Below the pieces are notes generated by a model, which worked only from the letters and a program-made list of their open reading frames with translations, was not told where the DNA came from and made no database searches. A stretch of DNA of 64,000 nucleotides from Candidatus Yanofskybacteria bacterium RIFCSPHIGHO2_01_FULL_43_32. Its GTDB lineage: Bacteria; Patescibacteriota; Minisyncoccia; 2-02-FULL-40-12; GWA2-44-9. Below are positions 6,833-31,205 of the stretch, piece by piece. Every line of letters begins with the position of its first letter. Within the stretch, counting starts at the first letter, position 1. The position numbers and the translations under genes were made by a program. The DNA lies in contig MGJF01000002.1 in the NCBI GenBank assembly GCA_001794125.1, positions 172,514-236,513 of the forward strand, read 5' to 3'.

Positions 6833-7261
6833 ATGTCCGACAGAAAGTTAATTATAATCATGACCTGTATCCTTGTTGTACCGTCAGTGGCCTTAGTAGC
6901 GATTATGGTTCTTATAGGCTTGGGTCGTGGCGACGGCATCGAACCCGGCAAGACATACGCCCTCGCTTACTCTTACAAGGCCACGATCAAGGGCGGGACG
7001 CCGGCTCGCGTGTTTGACTTCTCGGACAGGAGCCTTCCACGGACTTCCGTCGTGGTTCCGCTTCGTGATGACCGTGGCATGCCGCTGGTTGAAGAAATCT
7101 CGAGCATGCCTCAGAGCACGGTTCGGAAGGTCGTCGCCAGTGTTCCAACTCGGACAGTAGAAGGTGTGACCTATCCCGGCTACACTTACGTGGTGTGGCA
7201 ATACCACCTTAGCGTGGTTGGGTCGCAGAGCGTGGTCCCCGAAGTCATTCCCGGCAAGTGA
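6833..7261 (+). CDS. hypothetical small membrane-anchored protein carried on a GC-rich (probably foreign) segment
   Basis: N-terminal TM helix (IIIMTCILVVPSVALVAIMVLIGL). The ORF is ~60% GC, unlike the flanks. It has its own promoter and a multi-hairpin terminator. Overlapping ORFs on the other strand reflect the GC-rich composition. Confidence 0.4.
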   Translation: MSDRKLIIIMTCILVVPSVALVAIMVLIGLGRGDGIEPGKTYALAYSYKATIKGGTPARVFDFSDRSLPRTSVVVPLRDDRGMPLVEEISSMPQSTVRKVVASVPTRTVEGVTYPGYTYVVWQYHLSVVGSQSVVPEVIPGK

Positions 7262-7269
7262 GCGCAATC

Positions 7270-7326
7270 GCCCCGGAGGGCGTAACCAGAAATCGTGGTT
7301 ACGCTTCCTCCGGAGGCGGTTTTTTG
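7270..7326 (+). terminator. cluster of three GC hairpins ending in a T-run
   Basis: cgccccggagggcg, gtaaccagaaatcgtggttac and cctccggagg are followed by cggttttttg. Confidence 0.45.
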
Positions 7327-7363
7327 ATACTTTGAACTTTTATTGCCAATCATCATTTATCAT

Positions 7364-7452
7364 TTAAGCAACCGGCGGAGGGTGTATGTCTTTTTAAAAT
7401 TAGCAAATTTTTAAAAGGCATACCCCGCAGTATGCATGGAGGTTATGTGAGC
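7364..7452 (+). repeat. copy A of a ~90-nt structured intergenic repeat family (copies at 7364, 28755 and 29622)
   Basis: Shares ttaaRcaaccggcggaggg ... aaaattagYaaRatttt ... gcatRgagSttRtgtgaRc with the other copies. The central stem differs between copies but stays complementary: gtatgtcttttt/aaaaggcatac here versus gtgccccttt/aaaggggcac in copy B. Confidence 0.6.
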
Positions 7453-7516
7453 TGTTAAAAATGATGAGGCAGAGCTTGTGGAATATTGGTTTTTATTTTT
7501 GTGCTACAATTAAACC

Positions 7517-17188: not shown

Positions 17189-18445
17189 ATGGTCTGTATT
17201 TTAATTTTGACCATTGTTAGAAAAAGCATGTCTACAAGAAATTTCAGCAACAGGGGATTCAAAACAAGAGCTTCCGGCAGACCGGCATTCAAAAGAGGAG
17301 GAAACTCTTCGCGTTTTGGCGGACGGAGCAGGAATCAGGGCGAATATATCGATCCGGCCCGGTTTATCAACAAAGCGGTCATAACTGAAGAGGTTGAACA
17401 TTTCGTTCCTGAACATAATTTTCAGGATTTTAATGTTGACCAGACAATAAAGAGAGCCATCGCATCTAAGGGTTACATTACCCCGACTCCGATTCAGGAC
17501 AGAGTTATCGCTCATATTTTGAATGGTTCCGATGTGGTCGGAATCGCAAATACCGGTACAGGCAAGACTGCCGCATTTTTGATTCCGTTGATAAATAAAG
17601 TCATTTTAAACCGCAAGGAAATGGTCTTGGTGGTGGTTCCGACCCGCGAACTTGCGTTGCAGATAGAAAGCGAATTGCAGGGTTTTACCCGCGGGATGAG
17701 AATCTTTTCTGTCTGTTGCGTCGGCGGGGCCAGCATGGGCCGCCAGATATCGCAGTTGAGAAATCAATATAACTTTATAATCGGCACTCCGGGACGATTG
17801 AAAGACCACATTGAACATGGCTTTATCCGCCTTGCAGAATTCAAGACCATTGTTTTGGATGAAGCGGACAGGATGCTTGATATGGGATTCATCAATGACA
17901 TGCGTTTTGTGATGGCCGGAATGCCCAAGGAACGGCAGACCCTTTTCTTTTCGGCCACTCTTTCCCGCGACATAGATAACCTTATCTATGAATTTCTCAG
18001 CCAGCCGGTCAAAATTTCCGTTAAGACAAGAGATACCGCAAAGAATGTGGAACAGGATGTTGTCCGCATGGACGGCAAAGACAAGCTGGAAGTTCTCCAT
18101 GATTTATTGGTTAAAAAGTCGGAATTCTGCAAAGTGCTTATTTTTGGAAGAACAAAACACGGTGTGGAACGCCTCTCAAGAAATCTTGCCCAGCGTGGAT
18201 TTAAATCCGAATCTATTCATGGCAACAAGACTCAGTCTCAACGTCAAAAAGCGCTTAATTTGTTCAAAAATAGCTATGTCCAGATTTTGGTCGCGACAGA
18301 CGTCGCCGCCCGCGGCCTTGATATCGCCGATGTCAGCCATGTCATCAACTACGACTTGCCCGCGACATACGACGATTATGTTCATCGCATCGGCCGGACC
18401 GGCCGCGCCGACAAACGCGGCAAAGCTCTCACGTTTCTCGAGTAA
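17189..18445 (+). CDS. DEAD-box ATP-dependent RNA helicase (the start may instead be the ATG at 17228)
   Basis: Q-motif TPIQ, Walker A ANTGTGKTAAF, DEAD (VLDEADRMLDMGF), SAT, and HRIGRTGRA. It has a Gly/Arg-rich N-terminus. Confidence 0.9.
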   Translation: MVCILILTIVRKSMSTRNFSNRGFKTRASGRPAFKRGGNSSRFGGRSRNQGEYIDPARFINKAVITEEVEHFVPEHNFQDFNVDQTIKRAIASKGYITPTPIQDRVIAHILNGSDVVGIANTGTGKTAAFLIPLINKVILNRKEMVLVVVPTRELALQIESELQGFTRGMRIFSVCCVGGASMGRQISQLRNQYNFIIGTPGRLKDHIEHGFIRLAEFKTIVLDEADRMLDMGFINDMRFVMAGMPKERQTLFFSATLSRDIDNLIYEFLSQPVKISVKTRDTAKNVEQDVVRMDGKDKLEVLHDLLVKKSEFCKVLIFGRTKHGVERLSRNLAQRGFKSESIHGNKTQSQRQKALNLFKNSYVQILVATDVAARGLDIADVSHVINYDLPATYDDYVHRIGRTGRADKRGKALTFLE

Positions 18446-26871: not shown

Positions 26872-27345
26872 ATGGATTTCTTAGCAATAATCCAAAGTAA
26901 GCCTGTTCTCATAGGTTTTCACCTTGGTTTTGCGATTGTCGGAATCGATGCGTTTTTATGGTTATTGGGAAAACTAAGAAGCGACGGGGGTTCGCAAAAA
27001 AGCACGATTGCTACGGCAGTAATCGGCGTGACTGCTTTTATCGCCAGCTGGATTGCCGGGGGATATTACTACGTGGTTTATTACGGCGGGCTTGTAAAAC
27101 CGGTTATTCAAAAGGGCCTGACGCCGTGGGCTCACAATATTATTATGGAAACCAAAGAACACGTTTTCTTGTTTATTATTCCGGTTGCGATGACCACGCT
27201 CTTCATTGCTTTGCTTGATAAAAAAGATATGGAACAGCTTAAAATTCGCCGGCTGGCATGGTTGCTTTCCGGAGCTGTTGCCGTACTGGGACTTCTTATC
27301 GGCGCGATGGGATTTATAATTTCCGCCGCAGCCCGGTGGGGATAA
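26872..27345 (+). CDS. hypothetical membrane protein (4 TM helices)
   Basis: A hydrophobic ORF directly after copA with a compact arrangement. Confidence 0.4.
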   Translation: MDFLAIIQSKPVLIGFHLGFAIVGIDAFLWLLGKLRSDGGSQKSTIATAVIGVTAFIASWIAGGYYYVVYYGGLVKPVIQKGLTPWAHNIIMETKEHVFLFIIPVAMTTLFIALLDKKDMEQLKIRRLAWLLSGAVAVLGLLIGAMGFIISAAARWG

Positions 27346-27352
27346 AAATTTT

Positions 27353-27673
27353 ATGAATAAACCACGACTTATTTTTGCATCTGCTCTTGCGGCTATCACC
27401 ACTATCGTATTTGTGGTGGTAATTACTGTTTGGGCGGAACTTTCAATCCCGCTGAAGAATTGGCTTAAAAGTTTTTCCGGCCATCATTGGACTTCCAAAA
27501 GTATTTTTTCTGCGCTGCTGTATGCGGTCGCTACGACGATATTTTACGGGAGTTTTCGTAATCCAAGCGAAATTATTATCCGGAAGTTGTTAGTTTTTCT
27601 TTTAGTGTTTATGGTTCTCGGCATCCTTAGTATCACGGCATTTTTCACGGGACACTATTTGGGGTTTTTCTAA
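27353..27673 (+). CDS. hypothetical membrane protein (3 TM helices)
   Basis: A hydrophobic ORF 8 nt after the previous stop. Confidence 0.35.
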   Translation: MNKPRLIFASALAAITTIVFVVVITVWAELSIPLKNWLKSFSGHHWTSKSIFSALLYAVATTIFYGSFRNPSEIIIRKLLVFLLVFMVLGILSITAFFTGHYLGFF

Positions 27674-27723: not shown

Positions 27724-28743
27724 ATGTGGTCATTGATGAAAAAGCCGATAATCGTCAAAAAAAGTCCGGTAGTGATCGTCAAGAATTTTATTTTGCTTCA
27801 AATCGGAGCGATTGTCGCCTTTTTTATAGTTAGCGCGCTTGCCAACTATGCCGCAATCTACCGTTCTCTGACAATCTCTCACGCCATTTCGTTCCGTATT
27901 GCCGAGGCTTTGTTTATTTTTTCGACTGAAACGGCTATGGTATTTTTCATATTTTTCCGATGGTATAAAGAATCTTATCACATTCGCAATAACGAAATTA
28001 TTCATACCTATGGTGTTTTTTACAGCCATGAAACAACAATCCCCATGGAACCTGTTACTTCGGTAAGCTACCGTCAAAGCCCGCTCGGAAAACTTACGAA
28101 ATACGGGACAATAGAATTGACCGGCAGCAACATAAACAAGAAAATCCGGTTGAAAAACATTCCCTCTCCGGAAGAATATGTCGGCTTGATTTTAAAATTT
28201 TCCGCCAGAGGCGAATCCGCTTTTGACGGAAAGAATAAAACCGGAACGCCGCCGGTTTTAGCGGAGCTTCTTAATCATAGTGAGCACGAAAACTTGGAGT
28301 TTAAGAGTACATTCCGTTGGGACACAAGACAGAACGCGGTAAACCGCGTTCTTGAAAAATCGGCAATGAAAACCATTGCCGCATTTCTTAATTCTCGGGG
28401 CGGGCATTTGGTGATGGGAGTTGACGATAACAAAGCGGTTGTAGGATTAGCTTCGGATTTCGGCTCTCTTGTCAGGAAAGACGCCGATGGTTTTGAGAAT
28501 CATTTCACTCAAATTTTTCACAATATGATCGGTGCCGAATTCAGGCAGTTTGTGAAATTGAATTGGTCGCAAGCGGACGGCAAAGAATGCTGTATTATAA
28601 GCGTTTCACCAAGCCACAAACCGGTATATTTAAAAAGCGATAACAGTAACGAAGAGTTTTATATCAGAACCGGCAACGGAACTACGGCTCTAAAATTATC
28701 CGAGACCAACGCCTATATCGACTCCCGTCGGAACAGGTTTTAA
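27724..28743 (+). CDS. membrane protein with an N-terminal bacterial PH-like (YdbT-type) domain and a C-terminal Schlafen/AlbA_2-like domain
   Basis: Two N-terminal TM helices followed by a PH-like region. The C-terminal ENLEFKSTFRWD...KTIAAFLNSRGGHLVMGVDDNKAVVGL matches the AlbA_2 (divergent AAA, Schlafen core) signature. Confidence 0.5.
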   Translation: MWSLMKKPIIVKKSPVVIVKNFILLQIGAIVAFFIVSALANYAAIYRSLTISHAISFRIAEALFIFSTETAMVFFIFFRWYKESYHIRNNEIIHTYGVFYSHETTIPMEPVTSVSYRQSPLGKLTKYGTIELTGSNINKKIRLKNIPSPEEYVGLILKFSARGESAFDGKNKTGTPPVLAELLNHSEHENLEFKSTFRWDTRQNAVNRVLEKSAMKTIAAFLNSRGGHLVMGVDDNKAVVGLASDFGSLVRKDADGFENHFTQIFHNMIGAEFRQFVKLNWSQADGKECCIISVSPSHKPVYLKSDNSNEEFYIRTGNGTTALKLSETNAYIDSRRNRF

Positions 28744-28754
28744 TAAATTTTATA

Positions 28755-28844
28755 GTTCACACAAGCTCTATGCGTACGGAGGGAGACGCCTTTTTAAAAA
28801 TTTACTAATTTTGTAAAAAGTGTCTCCCTCCGCCGGTTGCTTAA
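28755..28844 (-). repeat. copy C of the ~90-nt structured repeat, in inverted orientation
   Basis: On the minus strand it reads ttaagcaaccggcggagggagacactttttacaaaattagtaaatttttaaaaaggcgtctccctccgtacgcatagagcttgtgtgaac. The stem is extended relative to copy A (cggagggagac/gtctccctccg). Confidence 0.6.
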
Positions 28845-28915
28845 GTGGTTGGTGGCAACTGGCAATAAAAGTTCAAACTCTCTTCGAAACTGGCTTAAAA
28901 AGCCAGTTTTTGGTC

Positions 28916-28944
28916 TTGCAATTTCATTTTGAGTGTGGTATAAT
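28916..28944 (+). promoter_or_regulatory. sigma70-type promoter (TTGCAA, 17-nt spacer, TATAAT) for the NADAR gene
   Basis: It follows the terminator hairpin ctggcttaaaaagccag plus a T-run at ~28890-28915. Confidence 0.4.
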
Positions 28945-29050
28945 TAAATAGTTAGTAATCCGTTCTTTTCATTTTTGGAGGTGTGATGAGAGGTTTCTTT
29001 TTCTTCTTTATCTTCGGTCTGTTGAGCGGAAAAAAAAGAGGAGGTAGAGA

Positions 29051-29515
29051 ATGCCAGTCTTGAATATCGGTAGCAAGTCAGACGACTGGCGTGCCTGTCG
29101 CTTGAGCAATTTTTCAGCCGATGCTTTTGTGCTTGATGGAGAAAGAATGGCTTCTGTTGAGGGGTTCATTCAGGGGACGAAATTTCCTGATGGACACCCG
29201 ACTCGACAGCAGATATTTCAATCCGTCGGCGTAGAGGCAAAGCGGTTCGGAAAAAAGGCCGAGCGAAAGTTCGTCTGGTGGAATGGTCGAGCCATCTCCT
29301 ACGGCTCACCTGAACATCACGAACTCATCGAGAGGGCTATCCGTGCAAAGTTCGAACAGAATACAACCGCAATGGATGCTCTTCTGGCAACCAGGGGAAT
29401 GATACTAACGCATGACCTTGGCCATCCAGACCCGCCGAACACATCACTTCCAGCCAAAGTCTTCTGCGACATCCTGACCAGGATTCGTGAGGAGACTCTC
29501 CGGGCCCGTAAGTAG
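29051..29515 (+). CDS. NADAR (YbiA/DUF1768) domain protein
   Basis: RLSNFSADAFVLDGERMASVEGFIQGTKF matches the NADAR motif LSNF...F.LDG....S.EH..Q..KF. The ORF is ~58% GC, well above the flanks. Confidence 0.6.
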   Translation: MPVLNIGSKSDDWRACRLSNFSADAFVLDGERMASVEGFIQGTKFPDGHPTRQQIFQSVGVEAKRFGKKAERKFVWWNGRAISYGSPEHHELIERAIRAKFEQNTTAMDALLATRGMILTHDLGHPDPPNTSLPAKVFCDILTRIREETLRARK

Positions 29516-29621
29516 CGAAAGCGAAAGCGGGCTTTGTCATTTTAATATTAAGCAAGCGTAGCTCTTGCAACTTTATTTCATTTCTACCTTGAATCTTGCT
29601 TATTAATTATCAGCTATAAAC

Positions 29622-29711
29622 TTAAACAACCGGCGGAGGGTGTGCCCCTTTATAAAATTAGCAAGATTTTAGAAAGGGGCACACCGCAGCACGCATGGAG
29701 GTTGTGTGAGC
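29622..29711 (+). repeat. copy B of the ~90-nt structured repeat
   Basis: ttaaacaaccggcggagggtgtgcccctttataaaattagcaagattttagaaaggggcacaccgcagcacgcatggaggttgtgtgagc. A TATAAT box follows, immediately upstream of the next ATG. Confidence 0.6.
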
Positions 29712-29763
29712 AATTGAAATAAGGTGCTGGGTGGAGCGATTTTTTTTATGATATAATGAACCA

Positions 29764-30039
29764 ATGGGATTTTTCTTTAATACAAAACCGAAGGCAACAA
29801 AAGAGGAGTTCCAAAAAGTCAGGAACTATCTTTATTCGATGGGCTTTACTCACAAAGAACTGGAGCGAATCAAGGAGATTTTCCGTTCGGATCTGGATGA
29901 GTCCGCGAGTTATGAGCGAGGGATTTCCGGCGAAGAAATTGACAAAGGAATCCAATGGATGAGAGCCAATGTGAATATCCATCACATCTCTGCGTCTAAA
30001 ATAGATATTTTAGAGAAAGCCCTCAAGTCAAAGTTGTAA
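29764..30039 (+). CDS. hypothetical small protein (91 aa)
   Basis: An ORF directly after a TATAAT box, possibly leaderless. A palindromic terminator follows. Confidence 0.4.
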   Translation: MGFFFNTKPKATKEEFQKVRNYLYSMGFTHKELERIKEIFRSDLDESASYERGISGEEIDKGIQWMRANVNIHHISASKIDILEKALKSKL

Positions 30040-30095: not shown

Positions 30096-31205
30096 TTATT
30101 GAATGGCAAGCATTCTCTCTATCGGTATACGGGCTTGTCTGGCAAGTTCGGGGTCAACGGTTATCTCATGTTTCATATCCCGCAGCGATTCGTATAGGTT
30201 GCGCAAAGTGTTCTGTTCCATGAAAGCGCAGCGGGCTTCCGGATTGGCAGGAATGAATTCTTTGTCCGGAGCAACTTTGGACATTGGATAAATATTTGTC
30301 ACCGTAGTTGCAACTATGATTTTTTTCTGGGGAGTTTTCTTTAGGAACTCCATCATGCCCCAAGTTGAACGAAGCTGCATCATCTCTTCTGTGACAAGTC
30401 CTTGGTCAAGCAGGGTCATGCATTTTGATACACAACCGCATTCCATGTGGGCGACAACGGCGGCATCGGGATGAAGCGCTCTTTGCCTCATGACCTGGTG
30501 GGCGGTTATCTTTTCATGGACATGGCAGGCGCCCATCATAAGGTAGAGACGGTCTGTTGTTTGACCCACCTTCTCAAGAGTTTTGGCGGCATAATAACCC
30601 AGAAAAACATCGGGCAGAAAAAGCAACGGACTTTCTGGATAAAGCTCTGCCATATACCGGATTACCTTAGCCGCATTTGCGGAAGCGCAGCAAATATCGC
30701 TTATAGCCTTGATATCTAAATAAGTGTTGACATAGCTTATGACCTTTCCGTCCGGATGGGCCTCTTTCCATGCTTTTACTTTATTTACATCGGCATGAGC
30801 GGCCAGAGAACAAAGGGCTTTTAAACTTGGGGCCAGCACTTTCTGATGCGGTTTTTTCATGACCGCCAATATCTCATTCATGAAAAGCACGGATGCTTCT
30901 ATCAAAACATCGGCATCGGAATCTCTGCCTATCTTGGCAAGGTGAAGCGAATCGCCAATAAAATCTGCCGCATCTTGTACATCCGGCGGTTCGTAATTGT
31001 GAGCCAGAATAAGGACATTTTTTTCTTTTTTCAGACGCTTAATCTCGCCATTTAACAACGCCCGTTCATCAAATGAAACATTTGCAGGATTGGCACAGGT
31101 TGGGATAGGAGGCACTTCAATTGGCGGTCCCAAATCTACTCCGGAGATCATTTCAATAGCCTCTCTTGCCGGAAGAATATCGCCCGGCAATACCAATTTA
31201 TTCAC
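30096..31205 (-). CDS. nadA: quinolinate synthase
   Basis: NVLILAHNYEPPDVQDAADFIGDSLHLA, VISYVNTYLDIKA, and MGACHVHEKI match the three NadA repeats. Confidence 0.85.
   Translation of the reverse strand: MNKLVLPGDILPAREAIEMISGVDLGPPIEVPPIPTCANPANVSFDERALLNGEIKRLKKEKNVLILAHNYEPPDVQDAADFIGDSLHLAKIGRDSDADVLIEASVLFMNEILAVMKKPHQKVLAPSLKALCSLAAHADVNKVKAWKEAHPDGKVISYVNTYLDIKAISDICCASANAAKVIRYMAELYPESPLLFLPDVFLGYYAAKTLEKVGQTTDRLYLMMGACHVHEKITAHQVMRQRALHPDAAVVAHMECGCVSKCMTLLDQGLVTEEMMQLRSTWGMMEFLKKTPQKKIIVATTVTNIYPMSKVAPDKEFIPANPEARCAFMEQNTLRNLYESLRDMKHEITVDPELARQARIPIERMLAIQ

Follow-up and report, generated by a model that had tools for sequence, protein, structure and literature searches.

Do two adjacent genes on a bacterial chromosome form one defence module, or are they neighbours by chance? 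The question arises in a 64,000-nt stretch of the Candidatus Yanofskybacteria contig MGJF01000002.1 (the window), where a membrane protein with a Schlafen/AlbA_2 domain (open reading frame (ORF) A) is followed on the same strand, after 308 nt, by a NADAR-superfamily protein (ORF B). The original prediction read the two genes, together with structured repeats around them, as an unconventional defence or counter-defence unit, and proposed co-occurrence of the pair across candidate phyla radiation (CPR) genomes as one of the checks. Our comparisons indicate that ORF A and ORF B are independent genes, neighbours by chance and not a unit. The account that we favour, with some reserve, is a joint one in which ORF A would be a membrane-gated endoribonuclease and ORF B an orphan NADAR acquired in a variable slot. 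The two genes are:

27724-28743, + strand: ORF A, predicted bPH_2 + Schlafen/AlbA_2 membrane protein, 339 aa as read (ORF list, Pfam, AlphaFold2, Foldseek)
29051-29515, + strand: ORF B, Gp30.3/AdfN-type NADAR, 154 aa (Pfam Phage_30_3)

Genomic context of the two genes

The pair fails to co-occur in either direction. When one genome per species was scanned, 144 genomes proved to encode an ORF A relative, and 80 of those loci were retrieved; by tblastn, no NADAR homologue lies within ~6 kb of the ORF A relative in any of these 80 species-representative loci, and none was found near ORF A in four close metagenome relatives (0/4). From the other side, ORF B orthologues (75-90% identity) occur in at least five different settings, that of the window included. 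In the others, the gene lies between PNPOx and a PDC-M70B-like gene, after GyrA, before ThyX, or in a PQ-loop operon near FtsEX (fused), and outside the window a bPH-AlbA_2 gene was never found beside an ORF B orthologue.

The boundary between the two genes points the same way. In the sister lineage L005, nucleotide identity is 95% through CopA and ORF A and breaks down immediately past the ORF A stop codon; this switch in the gene that follows suggests a rearrangement breakpoint at that position. Downstream of ORF A, the window holds these further features:

28916-28944, + strand: promoter-like site TTGCAA-17-TATAAT with upstream TG, ahead of ORF B (consensus match only; region conserved in L218)
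29764-30039, + strand: orf91, a 91-aa ORF with no assigned function (accompanies NADAR in L218; absent at other ORF A loci)
30096-31205, - strand: NadA (quinolinate synthase), the ancestral downstream neighbour of ORF A (synteny in relatives)

The 308-nt gap between ORF A and ORF B is predicted to contain a hairpin (-41 kcal/mol, z = -5) in addition to the promoter-like site. In a related species, locus L218:1-1587 keeps both the NADAR-orf91-NadA order and the NADAR promoter region, which suggests that a block of NADAR and orf91 is common to a small subclade. By this comparison, it is only in that subclade that NADAR appears to have been inserted next to ORF A. Because the pair does not co-occur, the proposed module is largely refuted; its two genes have separate contexts, a repeat and a promoter-like site lie between them, and the defence-system database PADLOC gives no hit. 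The two-gene module itself does not exist and should therefore be dropped as a candidate defence system. ORF A is the remaining point of interest at the locus; its architecture is undescribed.

Domain architecture and active site of ORF A

The layout proposed for the 339-aa protein (two transmembrane (TM) helices, a PH-like domain and a C-terminal AlbA_2 domain) is borne out, with Pfam scores above their cut-offs, the AlphaFold2 model and Foldseek in agreement:

27769-27969, + strand: predicted two-helix TM hairpin, aa 16-38 and 57-82 (AlphaFold2 secondary structure, charge counts)
27973-28206, + strand: bacterial PH domain bPH_2, aa 84-161 (Pfam; Foldseek 3dcx, 3hsa, 3b77)
28258-28737, + strand: Schlafen/AlbA_2 domain, aa 179-338 (Pfam, Foldseek, conservation)
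28282-28305, + strand: putative nuclease motif E187-H-E-N-L-E192-F-K194 (fits E(x)4(D/E)xK; SLFN14 alignment)
28426-28428, + strand: D235, third acidic residue (conserved in 196/200 homologues)

Specifically, bPH_2 (PF03703) scores 44.9 bits against a cut-off of 22 over aa 80-151, and SLFN_AlbA_2 (PF04326) scores 65.6 bits against 25.3 over aa 187-323, covering 117 of 118 model positions; the AlbA_2 similarity thus holds in a hidden Markov model search. The AlphaFold2 model, for which 32 homologues served as input, has a mean predicted local distance difference test (pLDDT) score of 82. It predicts two long N-terminal helices (aa 16-38 and 57-82), a helix-capped PH-type beta-sandwich (aa 84-161), a disordered linker (aa 164-174) and an AlbA_2 domain with pLDDT >90. 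Because the N-terminus carries five K/R and no D/E residues, the positive-inside rule predicts an N-in/C-in topology, which would place both soluble domains in the cytoplasm.

Foldseek searches of the Protein Data Bank (PDB) matched the middle part of the model to bacterial PH domains (3dcx, 3hsa, 3b77) and the C-terminal part, with probability 1.00, to 3lmm, SLFN13 (5yd0), SAMD9 (7ksp and 9o0d), SLFN14 (9nyy) and SLFN11 (7fex); SLFN5 is also among the matches for this part, and the modelled AlbA_2 fold is of the alpha+beta type of the Schlafen C-lobe. A profile of the ORF A family searched against the PDB retrieved SLFN14 at 3.8e-7, followed by SLFN12, SLFN13, SLFN11 and SLFN5. In the alignment with SLFN14, the ORF A segment EHENLEFK...AAFLNSRGGHLVMGVDD pairs with ESTHVEFK...SAFANTQGGYVLIGVDD; these segments include the 'SAFAN' Schlafen box and the Gly/hydrophobic core (AAFLNSRGGHLVMGVDD in ORF A, SAFANTQGGYVLIGVDD in SLFN14), and a further acidic residue of ORF A aligns with the 'IGVDDK' region.

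The active site of bacterial Schlafen domains consists of an E(x)4(D/E)xK motif, a SAFAN box and a further acidic residue, and these domains cleave tRNA in a Mg2+/Mn2+-dependent manner; a single bacterial domain corresponds to the mammalian C-lobe and is active only once oligomerised, as in the RzAgo tetramer and the CbCash filament, whose triad is E17/D22/K24 (bioRxiv 10.64898/2026.05.29.728809, PMC13462974). The AlbA_2 domain of Avs9 kills cells through the same active site as other bacterial Schlafen domains. The ORF A motif agrees with the CbCash triad. Among 200 homologues with 35-97% identity, E187, E192 and K194 are invariant (200/200) and D235 is kept in 196; F221, N223, G226 and G227 are each at least 95% conserved, and constraint within the protein is strongest in AlbA_2, where 38 positions reach 95% conservation or more. 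ORF A thus appears to retain a complete metal-dependent nuclease site, E187/E192/K194/D235. Polar TM residues such as E69 were also considered as marks of sensing; this role was dropped because they are <90% conserved in the 200-sequence alignment.

The closest functional parallels are Cash (Csx15-Schlafen, type III CRISPR), SLFN-pAgo (RzAgo) and Avs9 (AlbA_2-STAND). Like them, ORF A has a C-lobe-type domain with the E(x)4(D/E)xK motif and a further acidic residue, as a single effector domain fused to a different regulatory module; the activity of those enzymes depends on oligomerisation. Unlike them, its partner is a two-TM hairpin with a bacterial PH domain rather than a CARF-like, Argonaute, GHKL or STAND module, its AlbA_2 domain is C-terminal, and its gene is conserved and syntenic in a CPR class, outside defence islands and without a PADLOC model. 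The N-terminal half resembles YdbS/YdbT-type bPH_2 proteins (PF03703), in which two TM helices likewise precede a cytoplasmic bacterial PH domain, and some ORF A relatives carry the JGI label 'membrane protein YdbS with pleckstrin-like domain'; in contrast to ORF A, YdbS/YdbT proteins have no nuclease domain. They are reportedly linked to bacteriocin transport or immunity and not to nucleic acids. A literature search found no description of a bPH_2-AlbA_2 fusion or of Schlafen domains in Patescibacteria. Among prokaryotic Schlafen nucleases, the architecture of ORF A is a new variant.

Distribution and surroundings of the ORF A family

A family search with ORF A returned 827 matches; the best 120 of the 827 are almost all 318-372 aa long with both Pfam domains present, and named relatives come from Yanofskybacteria, Taylorbacteria and Paceibacterota. 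Four relatives (76-81% identity) share the order HMA/DsbD, CopA-type ATPase, ORF A, NadA (- strand) and PGI (L004, one of the four, is without NadA), and ORF A and NadA, 1352 nt apart in the window, are separated by 38 nt in L001. Nucleotide identity in these syntenic relatives is 75-79% for ORF A, 79-82% for the flanking CopA and 68-78% for NadA; the divergence of ORF A is therefore about that of CopA and NadA, which is consistent with vertical co-inheritance. In place of a patchy, transferred distribution, we find a gene that is syntenic and diverges like its flanking genes in close relatives. These patterns indicate that ORF A is a vertically inherited, stand-alone, conserved gene of Paceibacteria-type CPR bacteria.

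No conserved neighbour common to the whole family was found across 84 loci; the best, Ddl (15/84) and UvrC (14/84), are lineage-restricted. A survey of only the nearest gene on each side of ORF A relatives (149 ORFs from 77 genomes) gave D-Ala-D-Ala ligase 13 times, cyclophilin (PPIase) 7 times, and Obg and DEAD-box helicases 4 times each, with ABC transporters, M23 peptidases and similar genes among the rest; as to defence genes, these neighbours yielded only generic helicase and ABC matches in PADLOC. ORF A itself matches no PADLOC family even at E <= 1 and nothing in NCBIfam, and a search for phage-borne relatives found none. The original prediction had called for a PADLOC check of the contig: across all 64 ORFs of the window, the scan found no defence system and only generic helicase models, whose matches all trace to one DEAD-box helicase (17189-18442). 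The scan also gave a weak PDC-M42C match for ORF B (E 0.003). ORF A lies outside defence islands, in housekeeping surroundings.

The relatives of its C-terminal domain give a different picture. We searched 1.84 billion representative proteins for the AlbA_2 subtype of ORF A (the domain alone scores ~175-200 bits), and found it as a C-terminal module on the type I restriction proteins HsdR and HsdM and on TIR, GmrSD_N and trypsin-like protease proteins (P0320, P0360, P0329, P0386 and P0370, from other organisms), as well as on beta-propeller and sigma/HARE-HTH proteins. These fusions, with the published tRNA-cleaving effectors, support the earlier statement that this domain type is found in nucleic-acid-sensing and anti-phage proteins. 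Two further proteins, P0263 and P0277 (~245 aa), combine a homologous two-TM hairpin with AlbA_2 and have no PH domain; these PH-less forms suggest that the TM-AlbA_2 pairing is the conserved core of the architecture. Prokaryotic Schlafen/AlbA_2 domains have been described as tRNA-cleaving defence effectors (PMC13462974, PMC12680541, bioRxiv 10.64898/2026.05.29.728809), and in one survey all tested bacterial AlbA_2 clades were defence-associated (PMC12680541). For the role of ORF A, then, its relatives point to conflict systems, whereas its conservation, synteny and housekeeping neighbours point away from a typical defence gene.

Identity of ORF B

ORF B had been described as a GC-rich NADAR gene. 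The superfamily assignment and the composition (52% GC against 43.4% for the window) stand; the generic NADAR model, however, scores only 25.9 bits, under its cut-off of 35.1, and the best Pfam family is instead Phage_30_3 (PF08010, T4 Gp30.3) with 102.8 bits against a cut-off of 36. The NADAR-DarT1 Pfam model gives 14 bits. ORF B matches T4 Gp30.3 over its full length (33% identity, E 5e-20), shares with it the motifs LSNF and EGFxQGxK, and aligns its H121, invariant in 8 sequences, with the histidine of T4 'LKHS'. A histidine in the last strand marks Gp30.3-type NADARs, where the YbiA type has Glu and the BC4488 type Asp (PMC11125620), so that ORF B is, as judged from its sequence, of the Gp30.3 type. 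Phage genomes hold 1392 full-length matches to ORF B, mostly T4-like, with a best identity of 41%, and 216 homologues were found across CPR. On this evidence we assign ORF B to the AdfN/Gp30.3 NADAR family as a new member.

T4 Gp30.3 is AdfN, an orphan NADAR and counter-defence enzyme that removes DarT1-made ADP-ribose from DNA (PMC11257639). Like T4 AdfN, ORF B is a stand-alone orphan without a toxin partner; unlike it, ORF B is encoded in a CPR chromosome among housekeeping genes and not in a phage. With DarTG1 (DarT1 with a NADAR antitoxin) the locus has in common a NADAR-superfamily hydrolase, but no DarT/ADP-ribosyltransferase gene adjoins ORF B or five orthologues, and the subtype has the His of phage enzymes and not the Asp of BC4488. 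A search for an ADP-ribosyltransferase partner beside ORF B and its orthologues gave no significant ADP-ribosyltransferase domain, and a conserved 5' leader upstream of NADAR, sought across species, was not found. Most likely, ORF B would be a chromosomal orphan guanine-ADP-ribose glycohydrolase acting on DNA and protecting against an ADP-ribosyltransferase, and the presence of AdfN-type NADARs in CPR chromosomes suggests exposure to DNA ADP-ribosylating toxins. Nothing links the de-ADP-ribosylation chemistry of ORF B to ORF A.

Two observations concern the 85%-identical NADAR orthologue in locus L012. Directly downstream of it, an ORF on the + strand (L012:4575-5288) is a full-length match to PDC-M70B, a PADLOC candidate family (E 3e-34), and a tRNA-like sequence lies just upstream.

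Hairpin repeats and the slot between ORF A and NadA

The structured repeats that the original prediction saw around both genes are real, but they bracket the NADAR gene only, with the promoter-like site inside the arms. Three copies were found in the window:

28752-28849, + strand: left repeat copy, ~95-nt predicted hairpin, with conserved extension to ~28890 (inverted-repeat search, folding)
29618-29714, - strand: right inverted repeat copy (stem differs from the left copy with compensatory changes)
7360-7454, - strand: third, solitary repeat copy (same hairpin repeat elsewhere in the window)

As an inverted repeat of 95 nt, the two arms span 28752-28846 and 29620-29714, and they fold into predicted hairpins of -38 to -42 kcal/mol (z = -4.8 to -6.3). 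As the left arm starts 9 nt past the ORF A stop codon and the arms enclose NADAR alone, the repeats separate ORF A from ORF B. Copies share a layout of a conserved 5' box (TCACACAACCTCCATGCGT), a variable stem, an AT-rich loop and a 3' box (CCCTCCGCCGGTTGCTTAAG then GGCAATAAAAGTTCAAAC), and compensatory changes affect 8 of 27 stem pairs. Further copies occur in the related species L003, L004 and L020; just past the ORF A orthologue, L003 has a copy and L020 a half-copy, both loci being without NADAR. A metagenome scan with profile filtering left genuine copies in 53 loci (within L098-L177). Together these copies indicate that the hairpins on either side of NADAR are members of a dispersed repeat family specific to the lineage. 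We take them to resemble REPINs, miniature inverted-repeat transposable elements (MITEs; Correia, ERIC), mobile insertion cassettes and integron attC sites in their length of ~95 nt, conserved ends, long hairpin with compensatory variation of the stem, dispersed intergenic placement and pairs that enclose single small genes. Unlike REPINs, MITEs and integrons, the repeats have no cognate transposase, RAYT or integrase that we could find, and in contrast to the direct arrays of integrons their pairs are inverted.

The position between ORF A and NadA is itself variable: L001 and L002 have no gene there, L020 has a 449-aa ORF, and L003 (7023-7911) has a different 97-aa ORF between inverted repeats of the same kind. 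In L005, an unrelated gene (6852-7279) follows right after the ORF A stop codon. We propose that NADAR and the 91-aa ORF were acquired in this slot by the small subclade. The other cargo between repeats in L003 suggests hairpin-bounded single-gene cassettes, and NADAR might be the cargo of one that is mobile, with the slot downstream of ORF A as its docking site. Adjacent repeat copies are biased toward convergence (25 (+,-), 7 (-,+), 7 (-,-) and 2 (+,+), counts inflated by duplicates among the metagenome loci), and between the two copies of every convergent pair lie 367-1152 nt with a single small ORF, whose type varies (HD-domain, transglutaminase-like, HNH-like and many unknown proteins); these features and the changing content of the same slot in L003, L001 and L002 would fit such a cassette. 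However, L218 has NADAR-orf91-NadA and the same promoter region with no arms, so that the arms are separable from the gene; a search for long inverted repeats flanking NADAR orthologues in other species (L012, L013, L015, L216, L218) found none, no transposase or recombinase was identified, and neither a target-site duplication nor an empty/occupied pair was resolved. Mobility of the cassettes is possible, but we consider the docking of NADAR by this route unlikely. As a secondary reading, the slot would be part of a system, so far undescribed, in which hairpins bound cassettes of one gene each, and an AdfN-like anti-ADP-ribosylation gene would now sit within one of these cassettes.

A proposed mechanism for ORF A and its alternatives

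Beyond the domains, residue conservation and distribution observed above, we infer for ORF A a ribonuclease activity, its substrate and its trigger. The TM hairpin and bacterial PH domain would tether the cytoplasmic Schlafen/AlbA_2 domain, and the protein would be a metal-dependent endoribonuclease with tRNA as its likeliest substrate. Because CbCash and RzAgo rebuild the two-lobed active architecture by oligomerising, ORF A activity would likewise need single AlbA_2 domains to be brought together. The TM/PH module at the membrane may control this assembly into an active oligomer, and a change in the envelope (damage, depolarisation, infection or contact) would then switch on RNA cleavage and lead to translation arrest.

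Several points weigh against this account of the locus. The TM segment is only moderately conserved, and the gating by the membrane is purely conjectural. An AlbA_2 domain on its own might only bind nucleic acid and not cleave it, and relatives carry the NCBI label 'putative DNA binding domain-containing protein'. The family is without the defence association of the surveyed AlbA_2 clades (PMC12680541). As for the independence of the two genes, the L218 contig ends before the position of ORF A, and the adjacency may be common to the small subclade. Finally, there is no obvious need for ORF A as a housekeeping RNase, since the window already encodes RNase Y, which is membrane-anchored; the idea that ORF A stands in for a missing membrane RNase, which we had considered, is weakened by the same gene.

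Among the alternatives for ORF A, the one that survives best is a single-gene abortive-infection system fixed in Paceibacteria, in which a membrane sensor would trigger tRNA cleavage upon infection. In its favour, restriction-modification, TIR and GmrSD fusions carry the same AlbA_2 subtype, every bacterial Schlafen/AlbA_2 protein characterised so far is a defence effector, cleaving tRNA or killing cells, and the catalytic site of ORF A appears intact. However, the family is conserved and syntenic rather than patchy, its neighbours are housekeeping genes whose PADLOC matches are limited to generic helicase and ABC models, ORF A has neither a PADLOC match nor a phage-borne relative, and its high sequence conservation is atypical for fast-evolving defence genes. 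This makes the abortive-infection alternative a doubtful one.

Somewhat less probable still is that ORF A is a non-catalytic membrane tether or regulator whose AlbA_2 domain serves only to bind nucleic acid. NCBI labels on relatives read 'putative DNA binding' or 'RNA-binding domain-containing protein', several mammalian Schlafens are without catalysis (PMC13462974), and the AlbA_2 domain of SAMD9 was first solved as a DNA-binding domain (7ksp). The invariance of E187/E192/K194 and near-invariance of D235 down to 35% identity are nevertheless hard to explain without catalysis, and inactive Schlafens typically lose residues of the E/E/K/D motif.

The module of the original prediction, in which a membrane Schlafen effector and a NADAR reversing ADP-ribosylation would form one defence/counter-defence unit, is very improbable: although the genes are on the same strand 308 nt apart, belong to families engaged in phage-host conflict (PMC11257639, PMC13462974), keep their arrangement across several samples of the same species and have NADAR-orf91-NadA in one further species (L218), NADAR is found at 0/84 other ORF A loci, its orthologues stand in unrelated contexts without ORF A, a hairpin repeat and NADAR's own promoter-like site lie between the genes, no known mechanism joins the two activities, no ADP-ribosyltransferase is nearby and PADLOC has no model for ORF A.

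The proposed membrane-gated endoribonuclease would have wider implications. Prokaryotic Schlafen nucleases were first characterised in 2025-2026, always as effectors on cytoplasmic sensors in defence loci; were a large, conserved family of CPR bacteria to join an intact Schlafen site to a membrane/PH module, the known ways of activating such enzymes would gain a new one, and the domain would be seen in use outside classic defence islands, in episymbiotic organisms with tiny genomes. In the boldest form of this reading, the bPH-Schlafen family would be without precedent on two counts: as a Schlafen-type RNase tied to a membrane sensor, and as one inherited vertically across a whole lineage and not as a defence-island gene. 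It would pass an envelope signal of Paceibacteria on to tRNA cleavage. We put this forward as a speculative claim that is probably too strong; if true, a built-in switch would turn phage entry, membrane damage or the loss or gain of host contact into translational arrest.

Gene calls and other features of the locus

The true start of ORF A is probably M5 (27736), which would give 335 aa; other gene callers chose this start, and it is aligned in at least 90% of homologues. Public accessions of ORF A are OGN01718.1 and OGN11917.1, labelled 'hypothetical protein', and its UniRef entry A0A1F8H9I7 is automatically named 'Schlafen AlbA-2 domain-containing protein'. The exact proteins OGN01718.1 and OGN01719.1 are 'hypothetical protein' entries from Candidatus Yanofskybacteria metagenome-assembled genomes. 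All Pfam matches of orf91 are insignificant, including one to a PARP catalytic domain (E 0.064). An Rfam scan of the window returned tRNAs only. The other genes of the window are housekeeping genes, among them AlaRS, RNase Y, RpoA, ribosomal proteins, NadA and PGI.

Between CopA and ORF A, two ORFs on the + strand (26872-27345 and 27353-27673) encode small multi-TM proteins of no known family, with gaps of 8-10 nt. Conservation of these two ORFs is limited to the closest relatives (L005, L018 and L020), a sublineage in which ORF A may share a transcript with the copper-ATPase cluster.

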